A stretch of DNA of 64,000 bases, taken from the NCBI GenBank assembly GCA_030265965.1, contig JAJDHA010000002.1, positions 25,580 to 89,579 of the forward strand, read 5' to 3'. The translations under genes were made by a program, and so were the position numbers. Shown here one piece after another: positions 4,873 to 62,040 of this stretch. How positions within the stretch are numbered: the first letter of the stretch is position 1; each line of letters starts with the position of its first letter. The notes below the pieces were generated by a model that had not been told where the DNA came from, ran no database searches, and saw only the letters and a list, made by a program, of their open reading frames with translations. This stretch comes from Odoribacter sp. OttesenSCG-928-L07 (GTDB lineage: Bacteria > Bacteroidota > Bacteroidia > Bacteroidales > BM520).

Positions 4873-5407
4873 GCATCATAAATTAGCTGAAGAAGAAGAG
4901 CTATTGCTCAGACAAACTTTACGTACGCTTCATTTTCCTAAAGGAAGTGTTGTTATTGAAGAAGGAAAAATAGATGATTCAATTTATTTTATTAGACAAG
5001 GCGTTTGGCGAGCACATATCGAACGTGAAGGGGAAGATTGTACGTTATGGTTTGCGGTTCAAGGTGAAACTGTTTTTTCTTCGTGGGGACATATTCGGAA
5101 TTTACCTTCGCGAATGACAATATCTTCGTCAAGTAATAGCGTGGTTATTGAAATGAAAAAAAGTACTGTGCAAAAATTATCCGAAATGTCGCCATCATTC
5201 AATAGTTGGCTTCATCTGCTTTACGTTGATATGATACTTAATAGCGACAATCAACTTGTTGATATATCTTATCCTAAAGCAGAAAAACGATATTTAGCTT
5301 TTATGAAGAAAATGCCGGAAATCTTTCAACATGTTCCACTCAAAGAAGTTGCAGGTTTTATTGGCGTTACTCCTCAATCATTAAGCCGTATTCGAGCAAA
5401 AATATGA
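4844..5407 (+). CDS. Crp/Fnr family transcriptional regulator
   Basis: cNMP-binding-like beta-roll region (VVIEEGKIDDSIYFIRQGVWRA) and C-terminal HTH (LKEVAGFIGVTPQSLSRIR). The ATG at 4844 (METLISII) is preferred to the TTG at 4829. Confidence 0.75.
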   Translation: METLISIINEHHKLAEEEELLLRQTLRTLHFPKGSVVIEEGKIDDSIYFIRQGVWRAHIEREGEDCTLWFAVQGETVFSSWGHIRNLPSRMTISSSSNSVVIEMKKSTVQKLSEMSPSFNSWLHLLYVDMILNSDNQLVDISYPKAEKRYLAFMKKMPEIFQHVPLKEVAGFIGVTPQSLSRIRAKI

Positions 5408-5422
5408 GCTTAAATTATCTCG

Positions 5423-6181
5423 TTATTTATCAAAAATTCCGTAAACAGCCGAGCCACTGCCGCTCATAGCTGCGTAAACTGCACCATTGGCATACATTTC
5501 ATCTTTTATCTTTTTAATTTCAGGATGAATTGGAAAAATCGATTCTTCAAAATCATTTTTAATATTATCCTTCCAAGTAGAAATATCGGAGTATATCATT
5601 TCCTTCAAATTTCTAACATTAGAATTTGGCTTTACTAAAGAATAAGCCTCTTTTGTTGAAATATGAATATTCGGCACTTTAACTTCAATTTTATTGTTTA
5701 AATTGAAATCTACTTCCTCCAAAATTTCGCCGCGAGAACTTGCAAAAGCCGGTTTGTTATCAATGAAAAAAGCGCAATCGCTTCCTAATTTTCCTGCGAA
5801 AACTTTTAGCTCATCATTTGAAATACCTAATTCAAACATTCTGTTTAATAGAATCAAAGTGGCAGCTGCATTTGATGAACCACCTCCCAAACCGGCACCA
5901 ACAGGAATCTTTTTATGTAAATAAATATCCACGGGGGGAAGATCATATATTTCTGAAAGTAAATTATATGTTTTAATACAAAGGTTGTCATCCTTTACTC
6001 CATCAATAATATTACCCGAAAAATGAATGTTTGTTTCTTTATTATTGGATTTCACTATTTCCAAAATGTCTTTCAATTCGTTAAAAGGATATAAAAAAGT
6101 ATAAATATTGTGAAATCCGTCATCTCTTTTTGACAATATTTGCAAACCTATGTTTATCTTTGCACTTGGGAAAATGATCAT
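5423..6181 (-). CDS. ispE: 4-diphosphocytidyl-2-C-methyl-D-erythritol kinase
   Basis: GHMP kinase motif PVGAGLGGGSSNAAA and the N-terminal AKINIGLQI pattern typical of IspE. Confidence 0.9.
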   Translation of the reverse strand: MIIFPSAKINIGLQILSKRDDGFHNIYTFLYPFNELKDILEIVKSNNKETNIHFSGNIIDGVKDDNLCIKTYNLLSEIYDLPPVDIYLHKKIPVGAGLGGGSSNAAATLILLNRMFELGISNDELKVFAGKLGSDCAFFIDNKPAFASSRGEILEEVDFNLNNKIEVKVPNIHISTKEAYSLVKPNSNVRNLKEMIYSDISTWKDNIKNDFEESIFPIHPEIKKIKDEMYANGAVYAAMSGSGSAVYGIFDK

Positions 6182-8368: not shown

Positions 8369-9101
8369 AATAAATGCTGTTGGAATAATTCCGGCTCGAT
8401 ATAACTCGTCTAGATTTCCGGGAAAACCACTCGTTGACATTGACGGCAAAAGCATGATTCATAGAGTTTACGATCAAGCAATGAAATCGAAACTCCTTTC
8501 GAAAGTTTATATTGCTACAGACGATAAAAGAATTTTCGAACATGTAAAGAACTTTACTGACAATGTTTTAATGACTTCCGAAAATCATACAAACGGAACT
8601 GAAAGAGTTGCTGAAGCAATAGAAATACTCGAAGAAAGAAATCTTTTCTTTGACATTGTTGCAAATATTCAAGGCGACGAGCCATACATCTTCCCACAAC
8701 AAATTGATGAAGCATTATCTGTTCTTATTAATAATGAAAATGCGGAAATTGCCACTTTAATTAAAGAAATCAACTTCGAAGATGCAACAGACCCTAACAG
8801 GGTCAAAGTTGTTATTAGTAAGAATAATAAAGCATTATATTTCAGCCGACAAATTATCCCATTTTATAAAGTTGAACCTGAAAAACAAACTTATTACAAG
8901 CATATCGGTTTATATGTTTTCAGAACAATTATTCTTAAAGAAATTGTTAAACTCGATTTTTCGGTTTTAGAACGCGCTGAAAGCTTAGAACAATTAAGAT
9001 GGCTTGATAATGATTATAAAATTTTTGTTGAGTATTCGAATTATGAAACTATAAGTATTGATACTCCGGAAGATTTGAATGTCTTTGTTGGTGACGAGTG
9101 A
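8355..9101 (+). CDS. kdsB: 3-deoxy-manno-octulosonate cytidylyltransferase (CMP-KDO synthetase)
   Basis: IIPARYNSSRFPGKPL, NIQGDEP and an IDTPEDL-like C-terminus. The last codons and the TGA stop (9099-9101) lie inside the GTGACGA array. Confidence 0.9.
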   Translation: MAYSEINAVGIIPARYNSSRFPGKPLVDIDGKSMIHRVYDQAMKSKLLSKVYIATDDKRIFEHVKNFTDNVLMTSENHTNGTERVAEAIEILEERNLFFDIVANIQGDEPYIFPQQIDEALSVLINNENAEIATLIKEINFEDATDPNRVKVVISKNNKALYFSRQIIPFYKVEPEKQTYYKHIGLYVFRTIILKEIVKLDFSVLERAESLEQLRWLDNDYKIFVEYSNYETISIDTPEDLNVFVGDE

Positions 9102-9144
9102 CGAGTGACGAGTGACAAGTGACGAGTGACGAGTGACAAGTGAC
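9091..9144 (+). repeat. GTGACRA heptamer tandem array (about 7.7 units)
   Basis: gtgacga x3, gtgacaa, gtgacga x2, gtgacaa, gtgac. It fills the whole spacer between the convergent kdsB and the 170-aa OMP gene. Confidence 0.95.
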
Positions 9145-9656
9145 TATTTCATGGGAAAGTACACTCCAATTGCAAATGTAAACATCAATGGCATGTCGTC
9201 ATTAAGATTAGTTTTATAGAATGCACGACCTTTCATGACCCTAAACCCAAATCCAACTGAAGCTGTGAATACCTTTTTTGCTCTAAAAACAAACATTGGA
9301 GTTATTAATGCTTGTGTAGTTGAGTTGCCTAATCCCTGATGCCAAAATTGTAGAGACATAAATGAGCTTCTGATATCATTTTCTTTTAAGTGTATATTAA
9401 TGCCTAAGCCGAGACCTAAATATCCAAACCCTACTTGAATTCCAAAAATTTTTGTTGGAAGAACTTCAAAATCAAGGCCTACTAAACTACCTCCACCATG
9501 TAAAAATCCGAATGAGAGTGCAGTCTTTGAATGATCCTGAGAAATAGTATTCTCACTATTCTTATCAATTGTTTGATAGGCTAAAGTATTTTCTTGCGAA
9601 AATCCCACAAAAACAGTTGTCATTAAAAAAAATAATAGTAAAATTCTTTTTTTCAT
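9144..9656 (-). CDS. Small outer-membrane beta-barrel protein (hypothetical)
   Basis: Signal peptide (MKKRILLLFFLMTTVFVGFSQ), alternating Gly/aromatic beta-strand pattern and a C-terminal aromatic-rich strand. No specific family recognised. Confidence 0.5.
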   Translation of the reverse strand: MKKRILLLFFLMTTVFVGFSQENTLAYQTIDKNSENTISQDHSKTALSFGFLHGGGSLVGLDFEVLPTKIFGIQVGFGYLGLGLGINIHLKENDIRSSFMSLQFWHQGLGNSTTQALITPMFVFRAKKVFTASVGFGFRVMKGRAFYKTNLNDDMPLMFTFAIGVYFPMK

Positions 9657-9687
9657 AATTAATTATTATTTAAATTTTCCATTAACC

Positions 9688-9756
9688 CGTCACCCGTCAC
9701 ACGTCACCCGTCACACGTCACACGTCACTCGTCACTCGTCACTCGTCACTCGTCAC
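9688..9756 (-). repeat. GTGACNN heptamer tandem array (about 10 units, read on the minus strand)
   Basis: Plus strand reads cgtcacc cgtcaca cgtcacc cgtcaca cgtcaca cgtcact x4 cgtcac. It lies directly downstream of the 238-aa porin gene stop. Confidence 0.95.
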
Positions 9757-11035: not shown

Positions 11036-11133
11036 GTGACGTGTGACGTGTGACGTGTGACGGGTGACGAGTGACGCGTGACATGTGACATGTGACGAGT
11101 GACGAGTGACGGGTGACATGTGACGAGTGACAA
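11036..11133 (+). repeat. GTGACNN heptamer tandem array, largest copy (14 units)
   Basis: gtgacgt x3, gtgacgg, gtgacga, gtgacgc, gtgacat x2, gtgacga x2, gtgacgg, gtgacat, gtgacga, gtgacaa. It sits in the purE/GH2 divergent intergenic region. Confidence 0.95.
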
Positions 11134-11136
11134 CAC

Positions 11137-11227
11137 ATCCCCGTCAGGGGATTCCGAACGGTAGCCGAAAATGTTTCAATCCCGAAACCATCCCAATCCC
11201 GTCAGGGGATTCCGAACGGTGGCAGCC
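11137..11227 (+). repeat. Two direct copies of a hairpin-containing element (cccgtcaggggattccgaacggt)
   Basis: The 23-nt core occurs at about 11140-11162 and 11198-11220. Each contains the small hairpin (a)tccc(c)-gtca-ggggat. Confidence 0.8.
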
Positions 11228-16825: not shown

Positions 16826-16909
16826 ACCACCCGTCACCCGTCACCCGTCACCCGTCACCCGTCACATGTCACACGTCACACGTCACATGTCACACGTCAC
16901 TCATCACCC
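16826..16909 (-). repeat. GTGACNN heptamer tandem array (about 11 units, read on the minus strand)
   Basis: Plus strand reads gtcaccc x4, gtcacat, gtcacac x2, gtcacat, gtcacac, gtcactc, atcaccc. It fills the spacer between the convergent birA and the radical SAM gene. Confidence 0.95.
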
Positions 16910-20912: not shown

Positions 20913-21015
20913 AGATTAATTTTAGTTAAACAACATTTTACATATTGATAACGAGGATCAAATATAAAAATTGTATGAATGAGGGTATTTTTTTTGGATT
21001 TGAGAAAGGGGCGAG

Positions 21016-21070
21016 GAGAATGGAGAATTGAGAATGGAGAATTGAGAATTGAGAATTGAGAATGGAGAAG
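21016..21070 (+). repeat. Tandem heptamer array GAGAATK (about 8 units)
   Basis: gagaatg gagaatt gagaatg gagaatt x3 gagaatg gagaag read directly. Confidence 0.9.
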
Positions 21071-21117: not shown

Positions 21118-21163
21118 CATCAAATCATCACATCATCAAATCATCACATCATTAAATCATCAC
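21118..21163 (-). repeat. Tandem 8-mer array (GTGATGAT/TTGATGAT on the minus strand) directly after the sigma-factor stop
   Basis: Plus strand reads catcaaat catcacat catcaaat catcacat cattaaat catcac. Confidence 0.85.
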
Positions 21164-24207: not shown

Positions 24208-24251
24208 GATTTGAAGATTTGAAAATTTGAAGATTTGAAAATTTGAAGATT
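24208..24251 (+). repeat. Tandem 8-mer array TTTGAARA (about 5 units)
   Basis: ga tttgaaga tttgaaaa tttgaaga tttgaaaa tttgaaga tt. It fills the whole ogt/DUF1697 spacer. Confidence 0.9.
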
Positions 24252-25052: not shown

Positions 25053-25970
25053 ATGAAAAATAAAGCCAGATTTAAAGGCATTTTATTCGGCATAATTGCT
25101 GCTGTCGCTTACGGAACAAATCCGCTTTTTTCTTTGCCGCTTTATGCTGAAGGATTGTCTCCCGACTCGGTACTGTTTTATCGATATGGAATAGGTGTTA
25201 TTCTTCTCGGTATAATACTCCTTATCAAAGGAGAATCTTTGAAAATCCAGAAAAAGGAAATTTTGCCTTTACTTATTTTCGGGATAATTTTTGCCTGCTC
25301 ATCACTATTTCTATACCAAAGTTTTCTATATATGGATGCTGGAATAGCCTGCACAATACTATTTATTTATCCGGTATTAGTTGCAGTGATTATGGCTGTG
25401 TTTTTCAAAGAAAAAGCATCGTGGCTAACATATTCTTGTATTATCTTGGCAATGATAGGAATTGCTTTGTTATACAGAGGTAACGGAGATACAACATTAA
25501 GTACAACCGGATTAATATTGGTCGCGCTGTCATCTCTTTGTTATGCCATTTATATTGTTGCTGTTGATCATTCAAGAATACGAACAATGTCATCAACAAA
25601 GATGACCTTCTGGATATTAGTTTTCGGCAGCATTGTTTTTATAGTTCGTACCAGATTTTTATCAGAATTGCAATTGGTTCCGCCAACGTTTTACAGCTGG
25701 GTTAATGCGATAGGAATTGCGCTGTTCCCAACAATTATTTCATTGCTTTTTATAAATATTTCCATAAAAAACATAGGTCCGACTTTCGCAGCAATTTTTG
25801 GCGCTCTCGAACCGGTAACCGCTCTAATAATAGGCGTATTTGTGTTTCACGAAGCTATAACAGTACGAATAGTTATTGGTGCACTTTTAATTCTAATTGC
25901 TGTTACGCTTGTTGTTTCAGGAAATAATATTCTTGCTTTTTTTGGAAAAAAATCTATAAAGGAAAATTAA
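25053..25970 (+). CDS. EamA/DMT family transporter
   Basis: Ten hydrophobic segments and two EamA-like halves. The start is moved to MKNKARFKG. Confidence 0.8.
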   Translation: MKNKARFKGILFGIIAAVAYGTNPLFSLPLYAEGLSPDSVLFYRYGIGVILLGIILLIKGESLKIQKKEILPLLIFGIIFACSSLFLYQSFLYMDAGIACTILFIYPVLVAVIMAVFFKEKASWLTYSCIILAMIGIALLYRGNGDTTLSTTGLILVALSSLCYAIYIVAVDHSRIRTMSSTKMTFWILVFGSIVFIVRTRFLSELQLVPPTFYSWVNAIGIALFPTIISLLFINISIKNIGPTFAAIFGALEPVTALIIGVFVFHEAITVRIVIGALLILIAVTLVVSGNNILAFFGKKSIKEN

Positions 25971-28428
25971 AGTTGTTATTGTTTTTGAATTGTTTGACCA
26001 TTTTTCTATATTTAAAATAGCCCCAAAGTGGCAACACAACAAATACCGCTAATACCAAAGTTATTATCAAGTAAACATTCATCCCAATATTTCCACCATA
26101 ACTGTGCATTCCGCCTAAGATGTAATTTACACCGAAGTAGGTCATTAGCACAACTAACATTGCCATTAAACTATAAAAATGGAAGAAAAACGGACGTTTA
26201 AACAGCGAAAGACTTTTTTCGTGAAGCGGCAATGCGTAAACTATCATCGTGATTAACGCCCAGGTTTCTTTTGGATCCCACGACCAGTATGTTCCCCAGC
26301 TGACTTCAGCCCAGATTGCCCCGACAAATATTCCTGCTGTTAATAAGAAAAGTGCAGGATAAAGTAAAATCTTGCTAAAGACTGATAATTGCAGCATTCT
26401 GTTATTTACGAGTTCTATGTTTTTTTGTTTTGAGATGATGATTGAAATGAACGCGGCAATTGCAATAAAGGCGACAAACGCAAAGAGTGTGTACGATATC
26501 ATGATGAGTGAAACGTGGATACTCAAAAGTGGTGAAATTAATACCGGCTGCAACTGTGTAATTTGCGGATTTGCTGAACCCATCATCGATACAAGCATTA
26601 CTAATGACGAGAAAATAAATCCAAATGGTATTGAAAGAAACATTCTTTTTCTGAATATAAGTGCGAGAACAATAATACAAAGAGCTAAAAACTGTAAAGT
26701 CTCAAAGCCGTTGCCAAGAGGAATTCTTCCACTGATATATCCACGCAAACTAATCATTATCAGAATTAACAATCCGCTTATTATTAATACAAGATTTAAT
26801 ATTGCTGGAATTATTTTGTTTTGAGACGTGGCACGCCACGTCTCTACTTTATCAATGATACCAGTTTTATCCACTTTATCGATTTTATCCACTTTATCGG
26901 CTTTATCCACCTTTCCTCTCCCGTTCTCTCTTCTAAAAAAATATACCAAAGCAAAAATTCCAATCAACAAATGCGAAAACGCAATGGGTTTCACAATATT
27001 AAAGGAATTAAATATTTTTTCTGCAATAATCTTTTGTGGCGACAATAATAATTCTCCTGCCGACTTTCTTTGAAAAACTGATAATTTATCTAATGTGTAA
27101 CTAAAATCCTGCCAATGCTTTTGTTGCGCATATTCTCTTAAAAGTGAAAGACTTCCCTTAATGACTAATCGTTCATTTTCGGAAATGTTTTTTGGAAGTT
27201 CATCAGAGGGAGAATACCATATTAATTCTTTTTCTGAAACATATTGCGGAAAAACTTTCAGTAGGGTTTTCGATTGAATCATAAAAATCAGTTGAATTTT
27301 TTCATCGGCAGCGATTATATCTTTTGCGCCTTCAACCGTTTCACCCATGCGAATTTTTTGTAATGGCGCCGCAAGCTTGTAATTTTTTCCATCAATAAAA
27401 AAATCGGAGAAAGATGCATATTTACTTTCTAAGTCCAAAAGTTGTTGAACCGTTTTACCCTTTACTTTAATCACCGGTTCATCCTTCCATTCATCAAAGA
27501 AAAAAAGCCAACCAGCCAAAACTTGCTCCGAAGACATGGAATTGTAAGAAGTTTTTCCGTAAAGTTTTTGTGTGAAATCTTTGGAGAATGTTTGCATCGG
27601 GCAAATTCTGTCTTTGTATAAAATCTGCAATTGACCGAATTGTTTAGCGCTTTCTTCCGGAATTGATTTTGGATTGGCAATACCAATATTAATTGCACCA
27701 AAAAATATCAATATTACTATTGCACTTTGTTTCAAAGCAGGATGATTCAACAACTTTCTGAAGGATGTATTTGGAATGCAGAAATATCCTATCATCGAAA
27801 TAAACAGTAGAAAATATCCGGCATAAGTTACAGGAAGTCCATATCTGTCGGATTTAACAAGCAGTGTTGTTCCCTTTAAATCTTTATCGTAAGACATTTG
27901 ATAGAAACGGTATCCTTTGTCGGAAAAAACTTTATTCATGGAAACCTTTCCGTTGATTTCGATACCGTTTCTAATTATTTTGATATTGCTGATGTAATCG
28001 TAAGGAGCTTGTGTGCCGGGATAATATTCGATTTCAAAACTCGAAAGAAGAACATCAAAATGAAGTCTTTGTCGAGAATTGTTTTTTTCGTTTACCAAAG
28101 TATTTTCCGGTTTACCCTTTCGCAGATGAATTTTCCCTTCCGAAGAAGTTGTGAAAGTAAGGAATGCTCCTGTTAAAATCACAATAAACGATATATGCAG
28201 CAAAAAAGTTATCGGCTTTTTGTACATTTTGCATTTGATGATGTGCAAAAATCCACAAAACGCAATGACTATCCAAATACCTATAAACCACCACGATCCA
28301 TAAATGTTTTCAGCAACAAAAGGAGTTCCTTTTGCTTTTTCCACAAAAGTCGCCAACGCCAAAATCATCAGCATGATAATTAGGAAACCGAAGGAGAATA
28401 TTTTGGATATTTTTGCTTTGATGGACAT
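25954..28428 (-). CDS. ccsBA: Fused cytochrome c biogenesis protein CcsBA (ResB-like N-terminal part plus CcsA haem-handling C-terminal part)
   Basis: 824 aa. The C-terminal W-rich haem-binding motif WGTYWSWDPKETWAL marks CcsA. The N-terminal half has TM helices and a large soluble domain as in ResB/CcsB. Confidence 0.85.
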   Translation of the reverse strand: MSIKAKISKIFSFGFLIIMLMILALATFVEKAKGTPFVAENIYGSWWFIGIWIVIAFCGFLHIIKCKMYKKPITFLLHISFIVILTGAFLTFTTSSEGKIHLRKGKPENTLVNEKNNSRQRLHFDVLLSSFEIEYYPGTQAPYDYISNIKIIRNGIEINGKVSMNKVFSDKGYRFYQMSYDKDLKGTTLLVKSDRYGLPVTYAGYFLLFISMIGYFCIPNTSFRKLLNHPALKQSAIVILIFFGAINIGIANPKSIPEESAKQFGQLQILYKDRICPMQTFSKDFTQKLYGKTSYNSMSSEQVLAGWLFFFDEWKDEPVIKVKGKTVQQLLDLESKYASFSDFFIDGKNYKLAAPLQKIRMGETVEGAKDIIAADEKIQLIFMIQSKTLLKVFPQYVSEKELIWYSPSDELPKNISENERLVIKGSLSLLREYAQQKHWQDFSYTLDKLSVFQRKSAGELLLSPQKIIAEKIFNSFNIVKPIAFSHLLIGIFALVYFFRRENGRGKVDKADKVDKIDKVDKTGIIDKVETWRATSQNKIIPAILNLVLIISGLLILIMISLRGYISGRIPLGNGFETLQFLALCIIVLALIFRKRMFLSIPFGFIFSSLVMLVSMMGSANPQITQLQPVLISPLLSIHVSLIMISYTLFAFVAFIAIAAFISIIISKQKNIELVNNRMLQLSVFSKILLYPALFLLTAGIFVGAIWAEVSWGTYWSWDPKETWALITMIVYALPLHEKSLSLFKRPFFFHFYSLMAMLVVLMTYFGVNYILGGMHSYGGNIGMNVYLIITLVLAVFVVLPLWGYFKYRKMVKQFKNNNNFNFPL
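26823..26912 (-). repeat. In-frame repeat module inside ccsBA: 22-bp palindrome plus a 9-mer tandem array
   Basis: gagacgtggc-ac-gccacgtctc (26823-26844) is followed by ctttatcNN 9-mers (26847-26909). On the coding strand this encodes GKVDKADKVDKIDKVDKTGIIDKVETWRATS. Confidence 0.85.
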
Positions 28429-30039: not shown

Positions 30040-30063
30040 ACGCGCACGTCAGTGCGTCTCTAC
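30040..30063 (-). repeat. Degenerate copy of the GTAGAGACG...CGTCTC palindrome
   Basis: Plus strand gacgcgcacgtcagtgcgtctctac. The right arm is identical to the 40408-40441 palindrome and the left arm is decayed. Confidence 0.6.
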
Positions 30064-30127
30064 GCGTCACACGTAACTTCACAATCCGTCACACGTCACT
30101 CGTCACCCGTCACACGTCACTTGTCAC
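30064..30127 (-). repeat. GTGACNN heptamer tandem array (about 9 units, some degenerate)
   Basis: Plus strand gcgtcac acgtaac ttcacaa tccgtcac acgtcac tcgtcac ccgtcac acgtcac ttgtcac. The imelysin TGA stop (30124-30126) lies in the first unit. Confidence 0.9.
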
Positions 30128-31245
30128 TCCACAACCTCATCAATCAAAGAAAGTTGATCCAGCAAGTTATTACAAGCATCCATCGCCGCCTCAATCATTG
30201 GTGCACTTGCCGGATTATCAAGTTGGTTTCTGAAAGGAGAAGGAATATCTTTTATAGCGTTAATTGCAGTTTCAATTGCCTCCAAGATATCTTTATCCAA
30301 TTGCTCGTTTTTACTATTAACATAATCGCTCAAAGATTTTCCGGTTCTATAACCTTCCATTCCTCCCAAATAAGAGTTTTCGATGCTGATAATATTATTA
30401 GTGAAATCATCTAAAGAGTTCCAACTATACCAAGACTCAACACGAAGAACATTTTTTGTTTCGTATGGATCGGCAATTTTCTCGTTTCCAACTTCGTCTG
30501 CAATAGTCTCACATCCGCCAATGATTTCACGAACAGCTTGTTGCGGAGTTTTGAAACGACTACCTGCAGAACCCGCATTTAGCATTTCATAACCGAAATT
30601 AGAAGATATTTCAAGTTCAGCTTCTTCTAATATCCTTTTTTTAGTCGAACTAATATCATCAGTCCAAGATGCTTCCAAGAGAACACAATCTTCCATCAGA
30701 ACACCTGCAACAGCAACAAGATAAATCAATTCATTAGTTGTAATTTTAGAAACATCTTTTGCTTGTCCATTTTCAAAAAGGACGTATTCGATTGCATGAA
30801 AACCGATGAGATTTACACCATAATAAACGCGGGCATGTGGTGCGTCAACTCCGGTCATGTCTTTAGCAAGCTCTTGATCCAGAGTGTTTTTGTCGAGGGG
30901 CCATGAGTCAATACGAGGATCCAATGAGTTGTATTCTGCCGGTCCATAAAGGAAAGCCTCACTCAATTCCCAGTATTTGCGAGCTTCTTTCCATTTGTTC
31001 GCAGCTGCCAATACATTTGCATCTGTTGGTGATTCTTGAAGATTTTCACATAACTCAAACAAATCTATTGCATTGTTTGCCAATAAATTATAAGTTTTAA
31101 TTACAGTGTTGTTGGTATATACATCTAAGATTTCCAACATTTCTTTGTCGTCTTCTTCAATCGTGCCACCTCCACACGAACTTAAATTAAACACAAGAAT
31201 TAATGCCATTGAGGCAAATAAAAAATTTTTCAAATTGTTTTTCAT
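30124..31245 (-). CDS. Imelysin family lipoprotein (peptidase M75 / EfeO/IrpA-like)
   Basis: Lipobox (LSSC) and the conserved GFHAIEYVLF (HxxE) motif, with imelysin-like length. Confidence 0.85.
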   Translation of the reverse strand: MKNNLKNFLFASMALILVFNLSSCGGGTIEEDDKEMLEILDVYTNNTVIKTYNLLANNAIDLFELCENLQESPTDANVLAAANKWKEARKYWELSEAFLYGPAEYNSLDPRIDSWPLDKNTLDQELAKDMTGVDAPHARVYYGVNLIGFHAIEYVLFENGQAKDVSKITTNELIYLVAVAGVLMEDCVLLEASWTDDISSTKKRILEEAELEISSNFGYEMLNAGSAGSRFKTPQQAVREIIGGCETIADEVGNEKIADPYETKNVLRVESWYSWNSLDDFTNNIISIENSYLGGMEGYRTGKSLSDYVNSKNEQLDKDILEAIETAINAIKDIPSPFRNQLDNPASAPMIEAAMDACNNLLDQLSLIDEVVE

Positions 31246-31354: not shown

Positions 31355-31375
31355 GATCCCCTACGGGGATTTTTC
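31355..31375. terminator. Hairpin ATCCCC-TAC-GGGGAT with a T5 run on the plus strand, downstream of the porin-like gene
   Basis: Inverted repeat read directly. It is followed (plus strand) by ctttatcca ttttatcgg ttttac, a short copy of the 9-mer repeat family. Confidence 0.4.
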
Positions 31376-31401
31376 TTTATCCATTTTATCGGTTTTACAA
31401 A

Positions 31402-35337: not shown

Positions 35338-35347
35338 GGCTTATTTA

Positions 35348-35378
35348 GTTGAAAGTTGAAAGTTGAAAAGTGAAAATT
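35348..35378 (+). repeat. Tandem heptamer array GTTGAAA x3 plus AGTGAAA
   Basis: gttgaaa gttgaaa gttgaaa agtgaaa read directly. Confidence 0.9.
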
Positions 35379-38285: not shown

Positions 38286-39110
38286 ATGAAGCTTAAAGAT
38301 AGAGCATCTCTAACGGGTATAATAGCCACCTTACTCATACACGCAGCTGTAATAATTGCTTGTATCTTACTTGCGTTTGTTACTCCATTGCCTTTACCCG
38401 GCGAAGAAGGTGTTGAAGTTATGCTCGGTTCATCAAGTTCCGGTAGCGGTAATGATATACTTTTTGAGAAACCTAATGTAAAACCTGTCGCTCCAAGTCA
38501 ACCAAGTTCTTCACAACAAGAATCTGTTAAAACATCAAATTCTGACGACGAGATTTTTATGCCGGAAGAAAGCGATAACAAAACCGAACAAGATCATGCA
38601 GAATTGATCGATGAACAAGATAACTCGCAACAAAACGAACATGACCAAATTGTTCAAAACGAACCGGAAGTAGAACCGGAACCTGTTGTTAATCCGAATG
38701 CTTTGTATAAAGGCTCATCTTCAAATAATGATAATAATCAAAGTGGTTCTGTTGGAAATGATGGAACACCTGGCTCTGTCTATGGTTCTCCGAATTCCAC
38801 AAATGAATCAGGTTTAGGCGGTGCCGGCGGCGGAATATCGTTCAGCCTTGATGGAAGAAGTTCCGTTCATCTACCAAAACCAATCTATGATTCCCAAGAA
38901 CAAGGCAGAATAGTTGTTGAGATTCAAGTAAACAAAAAAGGCGATGTTATTAAAGCTGTCGCGGGTAAATCTGGAACAACAATTATGGATCAAAGTCTGT
39001 GGGCAAAAACCGAATCTGCAGCGCTGAAAACAAAATTCTCACCAAATCCAAAAGCATCAGAAATACAAATAGGCACAATCACTTATAACTTCCGTAGAGT
39101 TAATGAATAA
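38286..39110 (+). CDS. TonB-family energy transducer (C-terminal domain protein)
   Basis: N-terminal TM anchor, a long Pro/Glu/Gln/Ser-rich linker and a C-terminal about 80-aa TonB_C-like module (GRIVVEIQVNKKGDVIKA). Confidence 0.7.
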   Translation: MKLKDRASLTGIIATLLIHAAVIIACILLAFVTPLPLPGEEGVEVMLGSSSSGSGNDILFEKPNVKPVAPSQPSSSQQESVKTSNSDDEIFMPEESDNKTEQDHAELIDEQDNSQQNEHDQIVQNEPEVEPEPVVNPNALYKGSSSNNDNNQSGSVGNDGTPGSVYGSPNSTNESGLGGAGGGISFSLDGRSSVHLPKPIYDSQEQGRIVVEIQVNKKGDVIKAVAGKSGTTIMDQSLWAKTESAALKTKFSPNPKASEIQIGTITYNFRRVNE

Positions 39111-40404
39111 TGATAGACTCAATCGCGAATACCAAGAATGTATTGAATTTCTATTTTCGCGTTTGCCGATGTATCAAAGAATAGGCAAAGCAGCATACAA
39201 AGCAGATCTCAATAATATTATTTCACTTTGCAATTATCTTGGAAATCCACAAGATAATCTCAAATTTATCCATGTCGCCGGAACTAACGGCAAAACATCT
39301 GTTTCGCATTATTTAGCTTCGATTTTTGAAAAAGCAGGCTACAAAACAGGACTTTACACTTCGCCACATCTCATTGATTTTCGCGAAAGAATATTAGTCA
39401 ACAGCAAAATGATAGACAAAAAATATGTCTGCGATTTTGTTGAAAAACACAAAGATTTTATCTTAGATTGTCAGCCTTCATTTTTTGAAATTACAGTAGC
39501 AATGGCTTTTCAATATTTCAAAGATGAGAATATCAATTGTGCAATTATTGAAGTTGGACTCGGCGGCAGGCTCGATTCTACGAATATAATTAATCCCGAA
39601 TTATCAGTAATTACTAACATTGGTTTTGATCATACTGAATTTCTTGGTAATGATTTAAAATCAATCGCCGGAGAAAAAGCCGGAATTATTAAAGAAAATA
39701 CTCCAATAATTATCAGCGAAACGCAAGATGATATTAAAGATGTGTTTATTGATAAAGCTAAGAATCTAAACGCCACTATTTTCTTTGCCGATAAAATCAT
39801 TGAAGTCTCTAATATTGAACATTCTATTGACAACTTACAACTTCAATGTTTTTCTTCTTTTAGCAATAACCATTATAACCTTAGTAGCAATCTTGCCGGA
39901 CTTTATGAAGTAAAAAATATTCGCGCTGTTGTTTTAGCAATTGAAATTTTAAGAGGTAGATTTAATATTTCCGATGAAGCATTAATTGCCGGACTTCACT
40001 CAACTGTTTTGCGCGGCAGATGGGAAAAATTGGGTAACGATCCTTTAGTTATTTGCGATACAGGACATAATGTAGATGGCATAAAAGAAGTTGTTAATTG
40101 CTTAACATCATTGGAGTATAATAAATTACATATTGTTATTGGTGCTGTTGGCGACAAAGATCTTGATAATATTATTCAACTTCTTCCAAAAGATGCGACA
40201 TATTATTTTTGCAAACCATCTATTCCTCGCGGAATGGATGTTGAAGTCTTAAAGTCGAAATTTGAAACCGTTAAAATAACCGGCGAAAGCTTTCCTTCTT
40301 GTTATGACGCATACTTAGCGGCAAAAGAAAATGCCGACAAAAATGATGTCATTTTCATCGGCGGTAGTACTTTTGTTGTTGCGGATGTGTTGGAGAAAAT
40401 ATAA
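39103..40404 (+). CDS. folC: Bifunctional folylpolyglutamate synthase / dihydrofolate synthase
   Basis: HVAGTNGKTS P-loop and Mur-ligase-like middle and C-terminal domains. Confidence 0.9.
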   Translation: MNNDRLNREYQECIEFLFSRLPMYQRIGKAAYKADLNNIISLCNYLGNPQDNLKFIHVAGTNGKTSVSHYLASIFEKAGYKTGLYTSPHLIDFRERILVNSKMIDKKYVCDFVEKHKDFILDCQPSFFEITVAMAFQYFKDENINCAIIEVGLGGRLDSTNIINPELSVITNIGFDHTEFLGNDLKSIAGEKAGIIKENTPIIISETQDDIKDVFIDKAKNLNATIFFADKIIEVSNIEHSIDNLQLQCFSSFSNNHYNLSSNLAGLYEVKNIRAVVLAIEILRGRFNISDEALIAGLHSTVLRGRWEKLGNDPLVICDTGHNVDGIKEVVNCLTSLEYNKLHIVIGAVGDKDLDNIIQLLPKDATYYFCKPSIPRGMDVEVLKSKFETVKITGESFPSCYDAYLAAKENADKNDVIFIGGSTFVVADVLEKI

Positions 40405-40407
40405 TTC

Positions 40408-40441
40408 GAAGTAGAGACGCACGGCCGTGCGTCTCTACTTC
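40408..40441. repeat. Perfect 34-bp palindrome GAAGTAGAGACGCACGG|CCGTGCGTCTCTACTTC (possible bidirectional terminator)
   Basis: The two 17-nt arms are exact reverse complements. It lies 3 nt after the folC stop and is followed by a heptamer array. Confidence 0.85.
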
Positions 40442-40505
40442 TAGTCACACGTCACTTGTTACTTGTCACACGTCACTTGTCACACGTCACACGTCACACA
40501 TCAGT
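40441..40505 (-). repeat. GTGACNN heptamer tandem array (about 9 units)
   Basis: Plus strand tagtcac acgtcac ttgttac ttgtcac acgtcac ttgtcac acgtcac acgtcac acatcag tcac. The TGA stop of the small Arc-like ORF lies at its edge. Confidence 0.9.
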
Positions 40506-40668
40506 CACCCTTCGCTCTCTTGCTCTTTTTCAACGCCTGATCAAGTATCCACAATATTTGTCCGTTAGTGCTGCGAAACTCATCCTGCGCCCACTTCTCG
40601 ATAGCTGCAAGTTTATCTGCATCTATTCGCAATACAAAAGCCTTAGTCTCGTTTTTCTTTTCAGGCAT
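40501..40668 (-). CDS. Small Arc/MetJ-like ribbon-helix-helix protein (55 aa), not in the ORF track
   Basis: Manual translation gives MPEKKNETKAFVLRIDADKLAAIEKWAQDEFRSTNGQILWILDQALKKSKRAKGD. The beta-strand then two-helix pattern is like the Arc family. It starts 14 nt after the SPFH stop on the same strand. Confidence 0.55.
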   Translation of the reverse strand: MPEKKNETKAFVLRIDADKLAAIEKWAQDEFRSTNGQILWILDQALKKSKRAKGD

Positions 40669-41718: not shown

Positions 41719-41790
41719 GCGTCGTCACTCGTCACTTGTCACTCGTCACTTTTCAAAATAATTTTCAACTTTCAACTTTCAACTTTCAAC
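41719..41790 (-). repeat. GTGACNN array (4 units, 41719-41749) followed by a GTTGAAA array (4 units, 41762-41790), both read on the minus strand
   Basis: Plus strand gtcgtcac tcgtcac ttgtcac tcgtcac ... tttcaac x4. Confidence 0.9.
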
Positions 41791-41797
41791 TATTTTT

Positions 41798-58262: not shown

Positions 58263-58289
58263 TAAGAATTTTTAAAATCTAAAAAATTT

Positions 58290-58625
58290 ATGAAGAAAAT
58301 AATTTTATTATTTGCATTACCGGCAATAATATTTGCTGGATGCGTAAAACAAAAAAATTGTGAAGGTTGTATTACTGGCAAATGGGTCTATTTTGAAGAA
58401 CCAATATGTCCTGATTATATTGCACCAAGCTACTGTAATAAGATAAATGCAATGTTTTATGTCGACACCTCTTCTACACCACTTTATTTTATTGAACCTA
58501 TTCCAAAAGCTTTTAAGTCTTCCGATACCATAACAGTATGTCTATCTTTTAAGTTTATTCCTAATTTAATATATAATTATGATATTCTTCCTTTTAAGTT
58601 AGTTTGTATTGAAAAAATTGATTAA
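58290..58625 (+). CDS. Small lipoprotein, paralog A1 (111 aa)
   Basis: Signal peptide and lipobox (IFAGC), with conserved CVKQKNCEGC..TG after the lipobox. The 5' about 92 nt and 3' about 25 nt are shared with 60605-60964, and the core is divergent. Confidence 0.7.
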   Translation: MKKIILLFALPAIIFAGCVKQKNCEGCITGKWVYFEEPICPDYIAPSYCNKINAMFYVDTSSTPLYFIEPIPKAFKSSDTITVCLSFKFIPNLIYNYDILPFKLVCIEKID

Positions 58626-58928
58626 AAAACGTTATAATTGCTGAATTAACATAAAAGATTTTTTGTTATAATAGTTAATTTTGTATTTTTCATAGATAGC
58701 CACGTCGCTACGCTCCTCGCAATGACGCTAAAATGTGACTTTATCTACTTTATCGGCTTCTTCTACACGTTACAACTTCACGGTTGGCAAAGATACAACA
58801 AAGAATTTAGTTGTAAAAAGGTGATTGGATTTTTTGGAATTTATGGAATAAAAATTTTCATTATTACATTTGGATTAACAAAATTTTTGTTATACATTTG
58901 CAGGTAATTATTTTTTAATTAAATACTT
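58626..58928 (+). repeat. Conserved about 300-bp non-coding block, copy A
   Basis: Aligns by eye at roughly 90 percent identity with 60965-61278. It contains a REP-like element (gccacgtcgctacgctcctcgcaatgacgcta, 58695-58730), ctttatcNN repeats, a minus-strand TAnnTTTG box (58788-58795) and a plus-strand box TACATTTG (58893-58900). Confidence 0.85.
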
Positions 58929-59021
58929 ATGTACACATTAAAAAAACTTTTACTATTTATTTTGCTAATACAGATAATACCATTAGCAGGACAGAAAGCT
59001 ACTTACTACTCTAAATCTTAA
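58929..59021 (+). pseudogene. Chimeric remnant: signal-peptide end of a 61279-type gene fused to the 3' end of a 59075-type gene (30 codons)
   Basis: MYTLKKLLLFILLIQIIPLAGQKATY matches the first about 26 codons of 61279-62040. From 59015 onward the sequence is the 75-bp junction repeat that also ends the 258-aa gene. Confidence 0.75.
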
Positions 59022-59089
59022 ATTGTTGAAAAAATAAAATTTAAATACAAATTATTAACCAAAATTTAACAACTATGAAGAAACTAATT
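59015..59089 (+). repeat. 75-bp cassette junction repeat, copy J1
   Basis: atcttaaattgttgaaaaaataaaatTtaaatacaaattattaaccaaaatttaacaactATGaagaaactaatt. It differs from 59829-59903 at one position. Confidence 0.9.
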
Positions 59090-59851
59090 ATACTCATTGC
59101 TTTCGTAGCTACAATACTTGTAGGATGCAACAATGAAAAATATCCAATAGAAATTGAGATTACTACTATTGCACATGGCAAATTATCTCCGAATATAATG
59201 TTTCCTAAAAACGAATTTATTATTAAATCTCAATTAGAATGGAATGAGTTAATAACAAAAATGGAAGAAAGTTTTCTTAATCTTAGTAATAATAAAATTT
59301 TATCTATTACAAATGATTTCTCTAAAAATTACATTATTGCTGTTTTTGAAGTGCCAAAAACTTCTGGAGGTTGGTCAATTGATATTACAGAAGTCAAAGA
59401 ATATAAAAAAGACATTATTGTTACTATAAATAACCTACAAACAGGAAATGTTACTACTGTTTATGAACAACCATTTCATTTTATAAAAATACCTATTACA
59501 AATAAAAGAATTGTTTTTGAAGATAATACACAACAATACACTCTAAAACATAAACTTGTAGGAGAATGGGTTGAAGTTTATCCGTGCGAAAACTGCAATA
59601 TTTATGTGTTTTCAAAAAATGATACTATTTATTCATATAATATAAATACTAATGAGGATCACAAATTATATTATCATGCACTTAACTATAAAACAATTTT
59701 TGTTAAACGATTGTGGGATGTTAATCCGTTAATAGAAACAAGTACACATTTTGTTACTTTTTTGCCTAATGACACAATGATAATTGAAAAAACGAGAGTG
59801 ATTGACAACGAGGCGTCTGAATATGATTATCTTAAATTGTTGAAAAAATAA
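59075..59851 (+). CDS. Lipoprotein with a PrcB-like (protease-complex-associated) N-terminal domain (258 aa)
   Basis: Lipobox (ILVGC). IAVFEVPKTSGGWSIDITEV...VYEQPFHFIKIP resembles the PrcB C-terminal domain signature as I remember it. Confidence 0.6.
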   Translation: MKKLIILIAFVATILVGCNNEKYPIEIEITTIAHGKLSPNIMFPKNEFIIKSQLEWNELITKMEESFLNLSNNKILSITNDFSKNYIIAVFEVPKTSGGWSIDITEVKEYKKDIIVTINNLQTGNVTTVYEQPFHFIKIPITNKRIVFEDNTQQYTLKHKLVGEWVEVYPCENCNIYVFSKNDTIYSYNINTNEDHKLYYHALNYKTIFVKRLWDVNPLIETSTHFVTFLPNDTMIIEKTRVIDNEASEYDYLKLLKK

Positions 59852-59903
59852 AATATAAATACAAATTATTAACCAAAATTTAACAACTATGAAGAAACTA
59901 ATT
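59829..59903 (+). repeat. 75-bp cassette junction repeat, copy J2
   Basis: Same string as 59015-59089 with a single T/A difference. It spans the 3' end of one gene, the spacer and the first 5 codons of the next. Confidence 0.9.
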
Positions 59904-60563
59904 TTAATAATTATAGCAATTGCTTTCCTTTTAGCAAGTTGTACAAAACATGACGGTCCAACAACACAATGTAATTGTAACTTTACAGACTTTAGATATT
60001 ATCATGGAGAACAAGTTGAGTTAAGTGAAATACAGGATAAGTATATTCTTATTGGCATTGACACAACCTATACTGACAATCAAATTAAAAATTTCATTTC
60101 ATCAATAAAAGAATTTGACAAAAAGTATGTTTATACAATTCATACTTCTTCTCAATACAAATTCAAGGAAATTCCATTAAGATTTAAATTTCCTAAGACT
60201 TGTGAAGAGATAACGCAAATTATTTCTAATTTAGAAAAAAACGAAATAGTTGCTTATGCTCATTATACGATGAAAATTGACCATTGTTTAAATCTAATTG
60301 GGGAGCAGATGGGAGATTTGTGTGTAATAAGCTATGGGAGTAATTTCTATGTGAAAACTTATGATGAAAATAATTTGTTTGACTTAAATCAAATTATTTT
60401 GGAAACAAATACAGAATTTGTAAAACAAGTAATGCCACAATGGTTTGAGTTAAGAGCCACAAAAAAATCTAAAGGAGATGCTTTGAAAATGGCAAATTAT
60501 TTCTATGAAACAGGGCTTTTTGAAGATAGTGAACCAGGAATGTCAAGATATCCGGTAGAGTAA
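59889..60563 (+). CDS. Lipoprotein with a possible subtilase-propeptide/inhibitor-like C-terminal region (224 aa)
   Basis: Lipobox (LLASC). The C-terminal GDALKMANYFYETGLFEDSEPGM resembles the ...A..L..SGLFEYAEPN ending of propeptide-like domains of Bacteroidota S8 peptidases. This is tentative. Confidence 0.55.
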   Translation: MKKLILIIIAIAFLLASCTKHDGPTTQCNCNFTDFRYYHGEQVELSEIQDKYILIGIDTTYTDNQIKNFISSIKEFDKKYVYTIHTSSQYKFKEIPLRFKFPKTCEEITQIISNLEKNEIVAYAHYTMKIDHCLNLIGEQMGDLCVISYGSNFYVKTYDENNLFDLNQIILETNTEFVKQVMPQWFELRATKKSKGDALKMANYFYETGLFEDSEPGMSRYPVE

Positions 60564-60576
60564 GTTCACTTATATT

Positions 60577-60619
60577 AACAAAATACAACCAAAATTTAAC
60601 AACTATGAGGAAACTAATT
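60577..60619 (+). repeat. Partial third copy (J3) of the cassette junction repeat
   Basis: aaccaaaatttaacaactATGaGgaaactaatt matches J1/J2, and the upstream part is more diverged. Confidence 0.7.
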
Positions 60620-60964
60620 TTATTATTAGCATTACCGGCAATAATATTTGCAGGATGCGTAAAACAAAAAAATTGCGAAGGTTGCTTTACTGGCAGTTTC
60701 GTTTACTTTGAAACGCCAATTTATCCGGATGTCGGCGACGACATAGACGAACGTTTTCGTGATAAAAAAGCTACAGCAAAGTTTTTACCAGATGATGATT
60801 GTGGGTTAACTTCTTACCCTATTTTCTTTACAAATACAATTCCTAAAGATTATAGAAGCAAAGATACGTTAAGAGTTTGTTTAACTCGTGTGTTTTCAAG
60901 TGAACTGGATTTTATATTACCTGTGACATATGAAAAATTAACCTGTATAGAAAAAATTGATTAA
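60605..60964 (+). CDS. Small lipoprotein, paralog A2 (119 aa)
   Basis: It has the same signal peptide/lipobox/CVKQKNCEGC head and C(I/V)EKID tail as 58290-58625, with an unrelated-looking core. Confidence 0.7.
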   Translation: MRKLILLLALPAIIFAGCVKQKNCEGCFTGSFVYFETPIYPDVGDDIDERFRDKKATAKFLPDDDCGLTSYPIFFTNTIPKDYRSKDTLRVCLTRVFSSELDFILPVTYEKLTCIEKID

Positions 60965-61278
60965 TAAACGTTATAATTGCTGAATTAACATAAAAGATTT
61001 TTTGTTATAATATGTTAATTTTGTATTTTCATAGATTGCCACGTCGCTACGCTCCTCGCAATGACGCTAAACCGTGGCTTAATCCACTTTATCGGCTTTA
61101 TCGGCTTCTTCTACACGTTACAACCTCACGGTTGGCAAAAATACAACAAAGAATTTAGTTGTAAAAAGGTGATCGGATTTTTTGGAAAATTTATGGAATG
61201 AAAATTTTTATCAAAACATTTGGAATAATAAAATTTTTCTTATACATTTGCAGGTAATTATTTTAAAATTAAAAATTT
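60965..61278 (+). repeat. Conserved about 300-bp non-coding block, copy B
   Basis: Counterpart of 58626-58928: REP-like element at 61034-61078, a minus-strand TAnnTTTG box at 61136-61143 and a plus-strand TACATTTG box at 61243-61250. Confidence 0.85.
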
Positions 61279-62040
61279 ATGTACACATTAAAAAAACTAT
61301 TATTATTTACTTTGCTAATACAGATAATAATACCATTAGCGGCACAGAAGACTACTTACCACCCTTACAAAGAGCGTGATAAAATGGAATACAACGGATA
61401 TCAGTACCCATTATTTCCAGGTACGGAAGAGTGGAAAGCGTTACCTATTGATATTGATAGATATGCTCTTCTACAACTACCTGAAGATACTTTGTATGCA
61501 ATTTCTACATATAGGCTCTTAGAAACATGTTTATATTACCCTATGATGATTGATATATTTGGCTTTGATAATCAGATTATTGCATTTGGTTTATTAAGAA
61601 ATTATTTTAATGGACTAAATGAGCTCTTTTGTCGAGAAGATATTGTTTATTGTCTATTATCATATTATTTTAATCGTATTCCTGACAGAATAACAACATT
61701 GAACAATTCATATGATCGAGGAAAATATTCTCTTGATTTTATTATCTTAGAGATAATGATATATCAACCTGAAATAGTTTCACAATTAAATAATTCACAA
61801 ACAACACTATTGATTAAAGATGTTTTGCAAAAATTAAACCACTATTCTTCATTAAAACAATATTTTGGACAAATGTCTATTTCAATCCCCATTAATGTGT
61901 TGGGACAAATATTAATAAAAAATGGAACATTAACTAATGCATCAATAAGAACCGATTTAACTGAGTTTTTAAAGACAGGTTACTTAAGATATCCGGAAGA
62001 TTATGAGTTTGTTTTAAAACATGCTCAGAATATATTATAA
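61279..62040 (+). CDS. Secreted hypothetical protein (253 aa)
   Basis: Signal peptide MYTLKKLLLFTLLIQIIIPLAAQ. No family recognised. Confidence 0.6.
   Translation: MYTLKKLLLFTLLIQIIIPLAAQKTTYHPYKERDKMEYNGYQYPLFPGTEEWKALPIDIDRYALLQLPEDTLYAISTYRLLETCLYYPMMIDIFGFDNQIIAFGLLRNYFNGLNELFCREDIVYCLLSYYFNRIPDRITTLNNSYDRGKYSLDFIILEIMIYQPEIVSQLNNSQTTLLIKDVLQKLNHYSSLKQYFGQMSISIPINVLGQILIKNGTLTNASIRTDLTEFLKTGYLRYPEDYEFVLKHAQNIL

Follow-up and report, generated by a model that had tools for sequence, protein, structure and literature searches.

REP/RAYT systems, i.e., repetitive extragenic palindromes (REPs) and REP-associated tyrosine transposases (RAYTs), have been studied mostly in Proteobacteria. The TnpA_REP enzymes of subclass 2.4 (RAYT group 4) are single-copy HUH/Y1 tyrosine transposases. 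According to Quentin et al. (2018, PMC6006769), subclass 2.4 corresponds to RAYT group 4 of Bertels et al. (2017) and is distributed over Cyanobacteria, Bacteroidetes, and scattered other phyla; its REPs have a double foot, namely GT[AG]G at the 5′ end and C[TC]AC at the 3′ end, and its tnpA_REP genes contain REP insertions that keep the reading frame and short repeats in a variable insertion domain. A RAYT gene flanked by REPs has been termed a REPtron (Di Nocera et al. 2013, PMC3733652). Here we analyzed a 64,000-nt stretch of DNA (the window; G+C ~33%) of Odoribacter sp. OttesenSCG-928-L07 (Bacteroidales), in which a first-pass annotation had pointed out three loci that, when read on the minus strand, contain a short tandem array followed by a palindrome. 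The positions and the order of the elements at the three loci were confirmed, two of the palindromes being intact and one decayed. We consider it very probable (about 0.85) that the palindrome is a GTAG-footed REP of the double-foot type of subclass 2.4 TnpA_REP/RAYT group 4, because of its foot, the covariation of its stem, its REP-like siting, its linkage to RAYT-like genes, and the subclass 2.4 motifs of the latter. The element thus belongs to a published REP class and is of a known rather than a new kind: it is a REP with a traceable enzyme family and not a new RNA motif.

The palindrome in the window and in other genomes

The three copies of the palindrome in the window are the following.

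40411-40438 (28-nt core), no strand assigned: copy 1, intact double-foot REP GTAGAGACG-CACGGCCGTG-CGTCTCTAC, 44.1 bits with the covariance model, 15-bp hairpin
30040-30063, minus strand: copy 2, decayed single-foot REP GTAGAGACGCAC-TGAC-GTGCG(CG)TC, undetected by the covariance model
26823-26847, minus strand: copy 3, single-foot REP GTA-GAGACGTGGC-GT-GCCACGTCTC, in frame in ccsBA and translated VETWRATSQ

Read on the minus strand, each of the three copies begins with GTAG and thus has the GT[AG]G 5′ foot. The 3′ foot (C[TC]AC) is present in copy 1, whereas copies 2 and 3 are single-foot; other genomes contain a mixture of both types. The perfect 34-bp palindrome that had been read at 40441-40408 was verified as 17 + 17 nt at 40408-40441, the core being extended via GAA/TTC, and the identical 28-mer was also found in loci L003, L049, L058, L083, L100, and L106 of other genomes. 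In copy 2, the 5′ arm agrees with that of copy 1 at 12 of 12 positions, the 3′ arm carries a 2-nt insertion, and the 3′ CTAC foot is gone. When the covariance model was run over the 64-kb window, it detected two copies (40411-40438 and, with 26.9 bits, 26823-26844) and no third one, the decayed copy remaining undetected. With at most one mismatch, GTAGAGACG had 9 matches in the window, four of them exact, compared to 3.2 +/- 1.7 in shuffled sequences (0 of 100 shuffles reached 9). The 1-mismatch matches at 9350, 10716, and 56981 were considered as further copies and rejected as chance matches, as they form no hairpin. A generic scan of the window for GT[AG]G plus a GC-rich hairpin returned the REP copies alone, vs ~0.25 matches per shuffle. 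A search of the whole window against Rfam gave no match to any curated structured RNA family at gathering score, and scans for tRNA and tmRNA gave no match either.

We scanned 185,579 species genomes (one genome per species) with the pattern GTAGAGACG-N(2-24)-CGTCTCTAC, which permitted a gap of 2-24 nt and imposed no complementarity on the inner arms. At least 120 loci were obtained; the cross-genome figures on the palindrome refer to the matches listed, i.e., at least 120 loci with 130 copies in L002-L121, in which genes were crude open reading frame (ORF) calls. Locus L001 is identical to window positions 29103-50404, and no strain polymorphism could be obtained from it. Hosts of the GTAGAGACG/CGTCTCTAC palindrome among the listed loci were Bacteroidota, Cyanobacteria, Chloroflexota, Ignavibacteria, Rhodothermales, Desulfuromonadota, Acidobacteriota, and others, and they included finished isolate genomes.

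Of the 130 copies, 91 had a gap of 10 nt between the arms and 32 had one of 11 nt, and 56 different sequences were found for the inner 10 nt. All five inner pairs were Watson-Crick pairs in 66 of the 91 copies, vs 0.0011 expected. The inner stem has four variable pairs, and among the 56 distinct 28-mers each of these occurred with four to six standard pair types, three to four of which were Watson-Crick pairs; 98.1% of the cells were paired, compared to 85.4% after shuffling, and the covariation score was 0.35, compared to 0.087 (0 of 500 shuffles reached 0.35). The outer arms are thus fixed across phyla, and the inner stem is variable yet self-complementary. Compensatory change in the inner arms had already been proposed from two copies in the window, and since our search pattern ignored inner complementarity, this proposal now holds on a large and unbiased sample. 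In this respect the element behaves as a REP does, being a GC-rich 28-nt palindrome whose stem varies by complementary changes.

RAYT-like ORFs in the listed loci were located by tblastn with approximate E. coli RayT and IS200 TnpA probes and then with the ORFs themselves as queries. The probes served for ORF location only, and the located ORFs were checked with Pfam, NCBIfam, and PDB. RAYT-like genes were present in 7 of 120 listed REP loci but in none of 122 control loci (Fisher p = 0.007). The REP core was located inside the RAYT-like gene or at most ~300 nt away from it in all seven loci, and at most ~70 nt away in six of them. In L023, the RAYT-like gene has REP doublets on both sides and ends with the TAG of a GTAG as its stop codon; in L055, related hairpins are present on both sides of the gene. 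In three further loci the gene itself was invaded: a REP is found in frame in L021 and L114 (translated RRDAMHRVST and VETHGRASL, respectively), and an in-frame array-REP-array block in L083. The idea that the palindrome might be a small non-autonomous element, for which the first-pass annotation had suggested a search for RAYT-type transposases, was thereby borne out.

The encoded proteins had a single significant match in NCBIfam, namely NF047646 (REP-associated tyrosine transposase), with E values of 1e-13 to 1e-18. A profile built from six of the RAYT-like proteins matched 4ER8 (E. coli TnpA_REP) alone in PDB (E 4.4e-5) and covered the HUH and Y regions; with a single RAYT sequence, 4ER8 was obtained at E 0.63, which is not significant. 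An alignment of the proteins (A6) showed the motifs NH[FL]H, WQ, and YIxNNP. As a side observation, ~7 tandem 57-nt units were found in L106 directly downstream of the RAYT-like gene (5218-5580), each with a REP variant of the form GTTG-AGACGC(A/C)CGGCCGTGCGTCT-TTAC, and a ~230-nt repeat array lies in this locus between the RAYT-like gene and an intact upstream REP.

The siting of the copies was REP-like, too. As many as 78% of the copies were intergenic, compared to 18% of random positions, and of the intergenic copies 38% were located in convergent gaps (random, 16%) and 9% in divergent gaps (random, 25%). The nearest gene 3′ end was at a median distance of 23 nt, and the ORF itself ended with the TAG of GTAG as its stop codon in 9 of 81 cases. 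Extra copies within the listed loci had GTAG mostly on one side only. Up to five copies per 8 kb were found (L004, L056), and the cluster in L056 showed alternating orientation; the genes between these clustered copies encode WYL, DinB, and AIR synthase, with no transposase among them.

Some further features of the copies and their surroundings were recorded. Among the 130 copies, T was preferred before GTAG and A after CTAC (40/130). Palindromy extending at least 3 nt beyond the feet occurred in 10 of the 130 copies (2 expected), and the flank of copy 1 of the window, with its GAA/TTC extension, is of the rare A/T type. In cyanobacteria of the Nostoc type, the REP occupies the center of elements that resemble miniature inverted-repeat transposable elements (MITEs) and are bounded by inverted repeats (tagacatctccagaaa... 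or caatacggttcagttaa...), as seen in L011, L019, L026, L038, L039, L104, and L118 and in L007, L017, L070, and L076. Several other identities of the palindrome were considered and discarded: a MITE, because the element is a bare 28-nt hairpin with no direct duplication in its flanks; a CRISPR repeat, because the spacing is irregular; an integron attC site, because it is too short and has no R/L boxes; a dif/Xer site, because it is multi-copy and its center covaries; and an assembly artefact, because it is present in finished isolate genomes with varied centers.

Tandem arrays and host genes

The arrays that precede the three palindromes, and the genes involved, are listed below.

40442-40508, minus strand: GTGACNN heptamer array of ~8-9 units by GTGAC phase (Tandem Repeats Finder [TRF]: 40444-40503, period 7, 8.6 copies)
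40501-40668, minus strand: Arc-like gene, 55 aa, with its 3′ end within the first units of this array
39103-40404, plus strand: folC-like Mur-ligase gene, stop codon at 40402-40404
30064-30127, minus strand: GTGACNN array, six in-phase units at 30086-30127, then degenerate units
30124-31245, minus strand: imelysin (Peptidase_M75) gene, whose stop codon is the first TGA of this array
26848-26910, minus strand: GATAAANNN 9-mer array (TRF: 26866-26910), in frame in ccsBA and translated DKADKVDKIDKVDKTGIIDK
25954-28428, minus strand: ccsBA, encoding a fused ResB/CcsA cytochrome c biogenesis protein of 824 aa and hosting the in-frame array and REP

Copy 1 is located between the convergent folC and Arc-like genes, with the extended palindrome 3 nt and the REP core 6 nt downstream of the folC stop codon. 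At this locus, the last codon and the TGA stop codon of the Arc-like gene (GGT GAC TGA) are provided by the first array units, and the TGA stop codon of the imelysin gene lies inside the first unit of the second array (GAG TGA C). On the minus strand, stop codons therefore mark the start of the arrays and not that of the palindromes. The earlier statement that copies of the palindrome start right after a stop codon applies to copy 1, which follows the folC stop codon on the plus strand, and has otherwise to be transferred to the arrays. Similarly, of the nine GTGACNN units and the half-decayed palindrome described for the second locus, the decayed copy stands and the unit count has to be lowered to six clean units. 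The junctions between array and REP differ between the three copies.

In an alignment with 12 homologues, one of them 77% identical, DKADKVDKIDKVDKTGIIDKVETWRATSQ was present only in the CcsBA protein of the window, where it lies in a variable loop after FFRREN. At the DNA level, array and REP together amount to a net +81 nt, or ~26-27 codons, which are absent from all 12 aligned homologues. The spacer between the imelysin and DHOR genes has 189 nt here, compared to ~36-60 nt at the syntenic locus of the closest relative (L123), and no sequence homologous to the decayed REP was found in the much shorter spacer of L123. The C-terminus of imelysin is kept up to the stop codon (DEVVE* here, DDVIE* in L123). 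As both array-plus-REP blocks are absent from relatives, these alignments suggest that the blocks in ccsBA and in the imelysin-DHOR spacer are either gains in this lineage or losses in that of the relative. The window thus offers a gut Bacteroidales REP with two datable insertions: the one in ccsBA keeps the reading frame of an essential-type membrane protein, and the other lies at the end of a gene. The CcsBA homologue P0003 (alignment A1, columns 715-750) has a different insert, TPKFQPLNPLKGTSQIADNQYPPLGVGGDCPQFEG, in another loop; this insert is likewise in frame and resembles a translated repeat element.

Besides the two GTGACNN arrays listed above, the window contains five others.

9091-9146, plus strand: GTGACNN array
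11036-11133, plus strand: GTGACNN array
9687-9756, minus strand: GTGACNN array
16831-16900, minus strand: GTGACNN array
41722-41749, minus strand: GTGACNN array

Five to six of the seven GTGACNN arrays start at most 12 nt from a stop codon on the same strand, and two of the seven are followed by the palindrome. A scan of metagenomes, in which at least five units were required, yielded at least 125 such arrays (loci L124-L243; G+C 0.34-0.72). Of 104 arrays examined, 49% start between -15 and +21 nt of the stop codon of a sense ORF of at least 100 codons, compared to 5% at random. Offsets of +1, +8, and +15 occur among them, and hence the array's own TGA often is the stop codon; as GTGACNN contains TGA, an array stops all three frames within 21 nt. 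Among the 125 metagenome arrays listed, none was followed by this REP. The finding that the stop codon of the upstream gene is the starting point of roughly half of the arrays, across many environments, may help to explain why heptamer repeats accumulate at the ends of genes.

The first-pass annotation had regarded array and palindrome as a recurrent two-part module. A first test in other genomes indeed indicated an association of REPs with arrays (7.7% vs 1.9%), but it was gone after restriction to intergenic DNA and unrelated arrays: in the intergenic DNA of other genomes, the REP touches an unrelated array in 3 of 103 cases, vs 6.0% of intergenic bases lying in such zones. Half of the arrays in the first test were tandem duplications of a half REP plus flank (L025, L031, L066, L090, L112). 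With the metagenome result, this speaks against a recurrent module, and we conclude that arrays and REPs are separate elements in common permissive sites and do not form a general module. Half-REP plus flank duplications with units of 11-20 nt were noted beside an intact REP in L025, L031, L033, L066, L090, and L112, which indicates that local duplication occurs at these hairpins.

Other repeats were observed in the vicinity of such arrays. The window contains arrays with other units (GTTGAAA, GGAGAAT, CATCAAAT, GATTTGAA, AGTTGAA) at 41755-41791, 21015-21069, 21118-21163, 24208-24251, 2295-2320, and 35347-35375, one of which directly abuts a GTGACNN array in a divergent-gene gap. A conserved element of ~65 nt (gaatactRYYttcgggcatcgcc...atactccgcggcgcttct...tttatgcgccgcac) directly follows GTGACNN or GGGATTA arrays on unrelated metagenome contigs (L130, L158, L172, L222, L233, L237, L243). 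A second hairpin family, ATCCCCGT(C)AGGGGAT, which has no GTAG foot, occurs at 11137-11152, 11196-11210, and 31356-31370; two of the copies are contained in a direct repeat of ~57 nt that follows a heptamer array, and the third, which follows 9-mers, is located immediately downstream of a stop codon. An element ending in (A/T)ATC, TCATTGCGAGGAGCGTAGCGACGTGGC(A/T)ATC, follows GATAAANNN 9-mers on the minus strand at 58695-58730 and 61034-61070 and has GTAG(A/C)GACGTGGC in common with the ccsBA REP. Since cgtcattgcgag is also found next to the REP of L014, it may represent a further repeat that is widespread in Bacteroidota. Both loci are part of a 2.3-kb segmental duplication in 58272-61329 (85-95% identity), which contains four similar gene starts with lipoprotein-like signal peptides (MKKLI...GC).

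Four of these loci had been put forward as related array-hairpin architectures. The ATCCCC...GGGGAT hairpins after the 11036-11133 array and after the 9-mers near 31390 were found as described, whereas the loci at 58760 and 61105 are not independent, because they are the two halves of the segmental duplication. In the generic scan, the hairpins of all four loci (11036, 31390, 58760, 61105) were without a GTAG foot plus stem.

Evaluation of alternative explanations

By analogy with the RAYT-REP system of E. coli, either strand of the palindrome could fold into a hairpin with GTAG at its foot when the DNA is single-stranded, e.g., at the replication fork. A RAYT would recognize the foot and the basal stem (AGACG/CGTCT here) and cut and rejoin single-stranded DNA, and this cutting and rejoining might spread and maintain the REP copies. 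The upper stem would need pairing only and would therefore drift via compensatory changes. Since foot and basal stem are fixed across phyla and the upper stem conserves only its pairing, the alignment predicts which nucleotides are read by the subclass 2.4 enzyme. Copies would persist where their insertion is tolerated, i.e., just after stop codons, especially in convergent gaps, and in flexible protein loops with the frame preserved. Such permissive sites of the Odoribacter genome also hold the species-specific, stop-anchored GTGACNN heptamers and the GATAAANNN 9-mers, and REPs would end up directly 3′ of arrays because both occupy the same sites.

Several observations weigh against the assignment to the subclass 2.4 REPs. 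The scores with NF047646 (50-67 bits) are under the 80-bit equivalog cut-off, the matches to Pfam Y1_Tnp are marginal, at or just below threshold, and the HUH motif is mostly NHLH, whereas NH[IFV]H has been published for subclass 2.4. All seven RAYT-linked loci belong to the Bacteroidota group, with none among the sampled cyanobacterial or Chloroflexota loci. The density in the window is modest, with two intact copies and one decayed copy per 64 kb, and tblastn of the 64-kb window detected no RAYT gene; as the search covered these 64 kb only, a cognate enzyme in this genome is an assumption, and we infer that it is present and has acted on the window copies. According to PMC6006769, transposition by any RAYT lacks experimental demonstration. 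Furthermore, all three window copies are located 3′ of arrays, which independent nesting explains only moderately well, and in the coding loop of ccsBA one array-REP pair was inserted together.

The last two points would be expected if array and REP were one composite mobile or co-generated unit. In such a unit, RAYT nicking or hairpin-stalled replication may seed or expand repeats by slippage, or REPs may home to slipped-strand arrays and insert there preferentially, as has reportedly been suggested for the small dispersed repeats within the heptamers of Nostoc. The position of all three window copies 3′ of arrays stands against ~16% of the intergenic bases of the window that lie at most 12 nt from an array. 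The array-REP-array block in the RAYT gene of L083, the arrays on both sides in L047 and L106, and the half-REP plus flank duplications described above also fit this explanation, as does the observation that in-gene arrays have a period of 9 or 12 and intergenic arrays one of 7. On the other hand, intergenic REPs of other genomes touch unrelated arrays at chance level, none of the listed metagenome GTGACNN arrays and only two of the seven in the window are followed by a REP, the junctions differ among the three copies, and arrays of these families are also found together with unrelated hairpins. A composite unit therefore seems doubtful to us, and a residual hint of coupling from ccsBA, L083, L047, and L106 is to be taken with similar reserve. 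The same low probability is assigned to the more far-reaching proposal that subclass 2.4 REPs and short tandem arrays are mechanistically coupled, that composite array-REP cassettes colonize post-stop nucleotides and flexible protein loops, and that TGA-bearing GTGACNN arrays represent a widespread uncharacterized class of heptamers built on stop codons.

We regard it as quite improbable that array and palindrome constitute one functional module in the 3′ untranslated region, in which the hairpin acts as terminator or exonuclease block, the array serves as spacer or protein platform, and selection acts on RNA structure. A terminator-like or RNA-stability function had been suggested by the first-pass annotation, and the short distance of the copies to gene 3′ ends, their preference for convergent gaps, and the high stability of the hairpins (z = -3.4 to -4.5) are in agreement with it. 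In a lax terminator scan, copy 1 passed on the minus strand only (15 pairs, tail GAATTATATT). E. coli REPs have been reported to stabilize mRNA and, when close to a stop codon, to stall ribosomes (PMC12306157). However, copy 1 on the plus strand and copy 3 have no tract of the kind found in intrinsic terminators, and a terminator-type T/A tract (at least 5 T/A in 8 nt) was present on only 10% of copy sides, compared to 5.8% in the background, so that ~90% have none. When mismatches were oriented by the flanking or host gene, 10 G·U stood against 9 A·C, i.e., there was no bias on the sense strand, and the orientation of single-foot copies was 6 vs 6. Neither the G·U/A·C counts nor orientation nor T/A tracts thus support selection at the RNA level. 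The lack of G·U and orientation bias indicates that pairing matters on both strands and thus at the DNA level, as expected of a RAYT substrate. The same 9-nt arms across phyla would be needless for a terminator, copies are found in frame inside ccsBA and RAYT genes, the palindrome is linked to RAYT genes, and arrays and palindromes each occur without the other. As a primary function, an RNA module is therefore not supported. By analogy with E. coli, RNA effects are plausible as by-products rather than as the reason for the existence of the sequence, and they might comprise an exonuclease-blocking 3′ hairpin, weak Arc-like/SPFH termination, and ribosome stalling at the folC stop codon 6 nt upstream.

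The symmetric and invariant outer arms with their fixed spacing of 10-11 nt would also suit a sequence that forms no hairpin and is instead bound by a dimeric protein or targeted by a restriction-modification system (GAGACG/CGTCTC is a type IIS site). As the spacer between half-sites needs no self-complementarity, yet 66 of 91 copies pair perfectly, and as many copies have a single GTAG foot and RAYT genes are linked to the palindrome, this possibility is almost certainly to be dismissed. A REP recognized by a subclass 2.4-type RAYT accounts best for the foot, the covariation, the siting, and the linked genes together.

Comparison with known systems

The small dispersed repeats (SDRs) of Nostoc, on which Elhai and colleagues are said to have reported in 2008, are reportedly hairpin repeats of 21-27 nt with compensatory changes, often located within tandem heptamers or minitransposons. 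RNA intermediates were reportedly proposed for them, whereas the evidence obtained here points to RAYT. As in that description, the REP of the window adjoins heptamers, and the Nostoc copies of the REP are located centrally in MITE-like elements. The palindromic elements of Rickettsia, attributed to work by Ogata and colleagues in 2000, are said to lie in frame in protein genes; with ~100-150 bp they form a different family. They have in common with the REP described here that a small palindrome is tolerated in frame, as in ccsBA and in the RAYT genes of L021, L083, and L114.

The GTGACNN arrays can be compared to the G-rich heptamer repeats of Xanthomonas and Nostoc, which are intergenic and strongly biased to positions 0-50 bp from, or overlapping, a stop codon, and for which polymerase slippage has been suggested as a cause (Rehm et al. 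2015, PMC4692102). Both types of arrays are biased to stop codons. In contrast to GTGACNN, the published repeats (GGGAATC, GGGGAYT) are rich in G and were examined for quadruplex formation, and no link to REPs was reported for them (PMC4692102).

The palindrome shares the GTAG tag at the hairpin foot with the GTAG REP superfamily and with the REP/bacterial interspersed mosaic element (BIME)-RayT system of E. coli (PMC3733652; 4ER8). It also resembles the REPs of that survey in the alternative complementary residues of its stem, in its location downstream of genes in convergent and same-direction gaps, and in its occasional intragenic copies. In the survey, however, the GTAG tag is unpaired at one end, whereas here it is often paired with CTAC, and Bacteroidetes were placed only under CGTC families (PMC3733652). 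The GTAGAGACG string was absent from the main text and supplements of PMC3733652, and a search for the 9-mer in full-text literature returned primer matches only.

The closest likeness is to subclass 2.4 as presented in PMC6006769, with good agreement on each of the points compared. Differences from it are the mostly NHLH sequence of the HUH motif mentioned above and the single foot of two of the three window copies. The specific GTAGAGACG arm, with its constancy across phyla in combination with a highly variable upper stem, may be a further difference. In common with the subclass 2.4 REPs, the palindrome has a 5′ GT[AG]G with a 3′ complement and a long GC-rich stem, and the linked Y1/HUH genes encode WQ and YIxNNP. 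As in subclass 2.4, REPs are found in frame in RAYT genes (L021, L083, L114), and Bacteroidota and Cyanobacteria are among the hosts of the palindrome.

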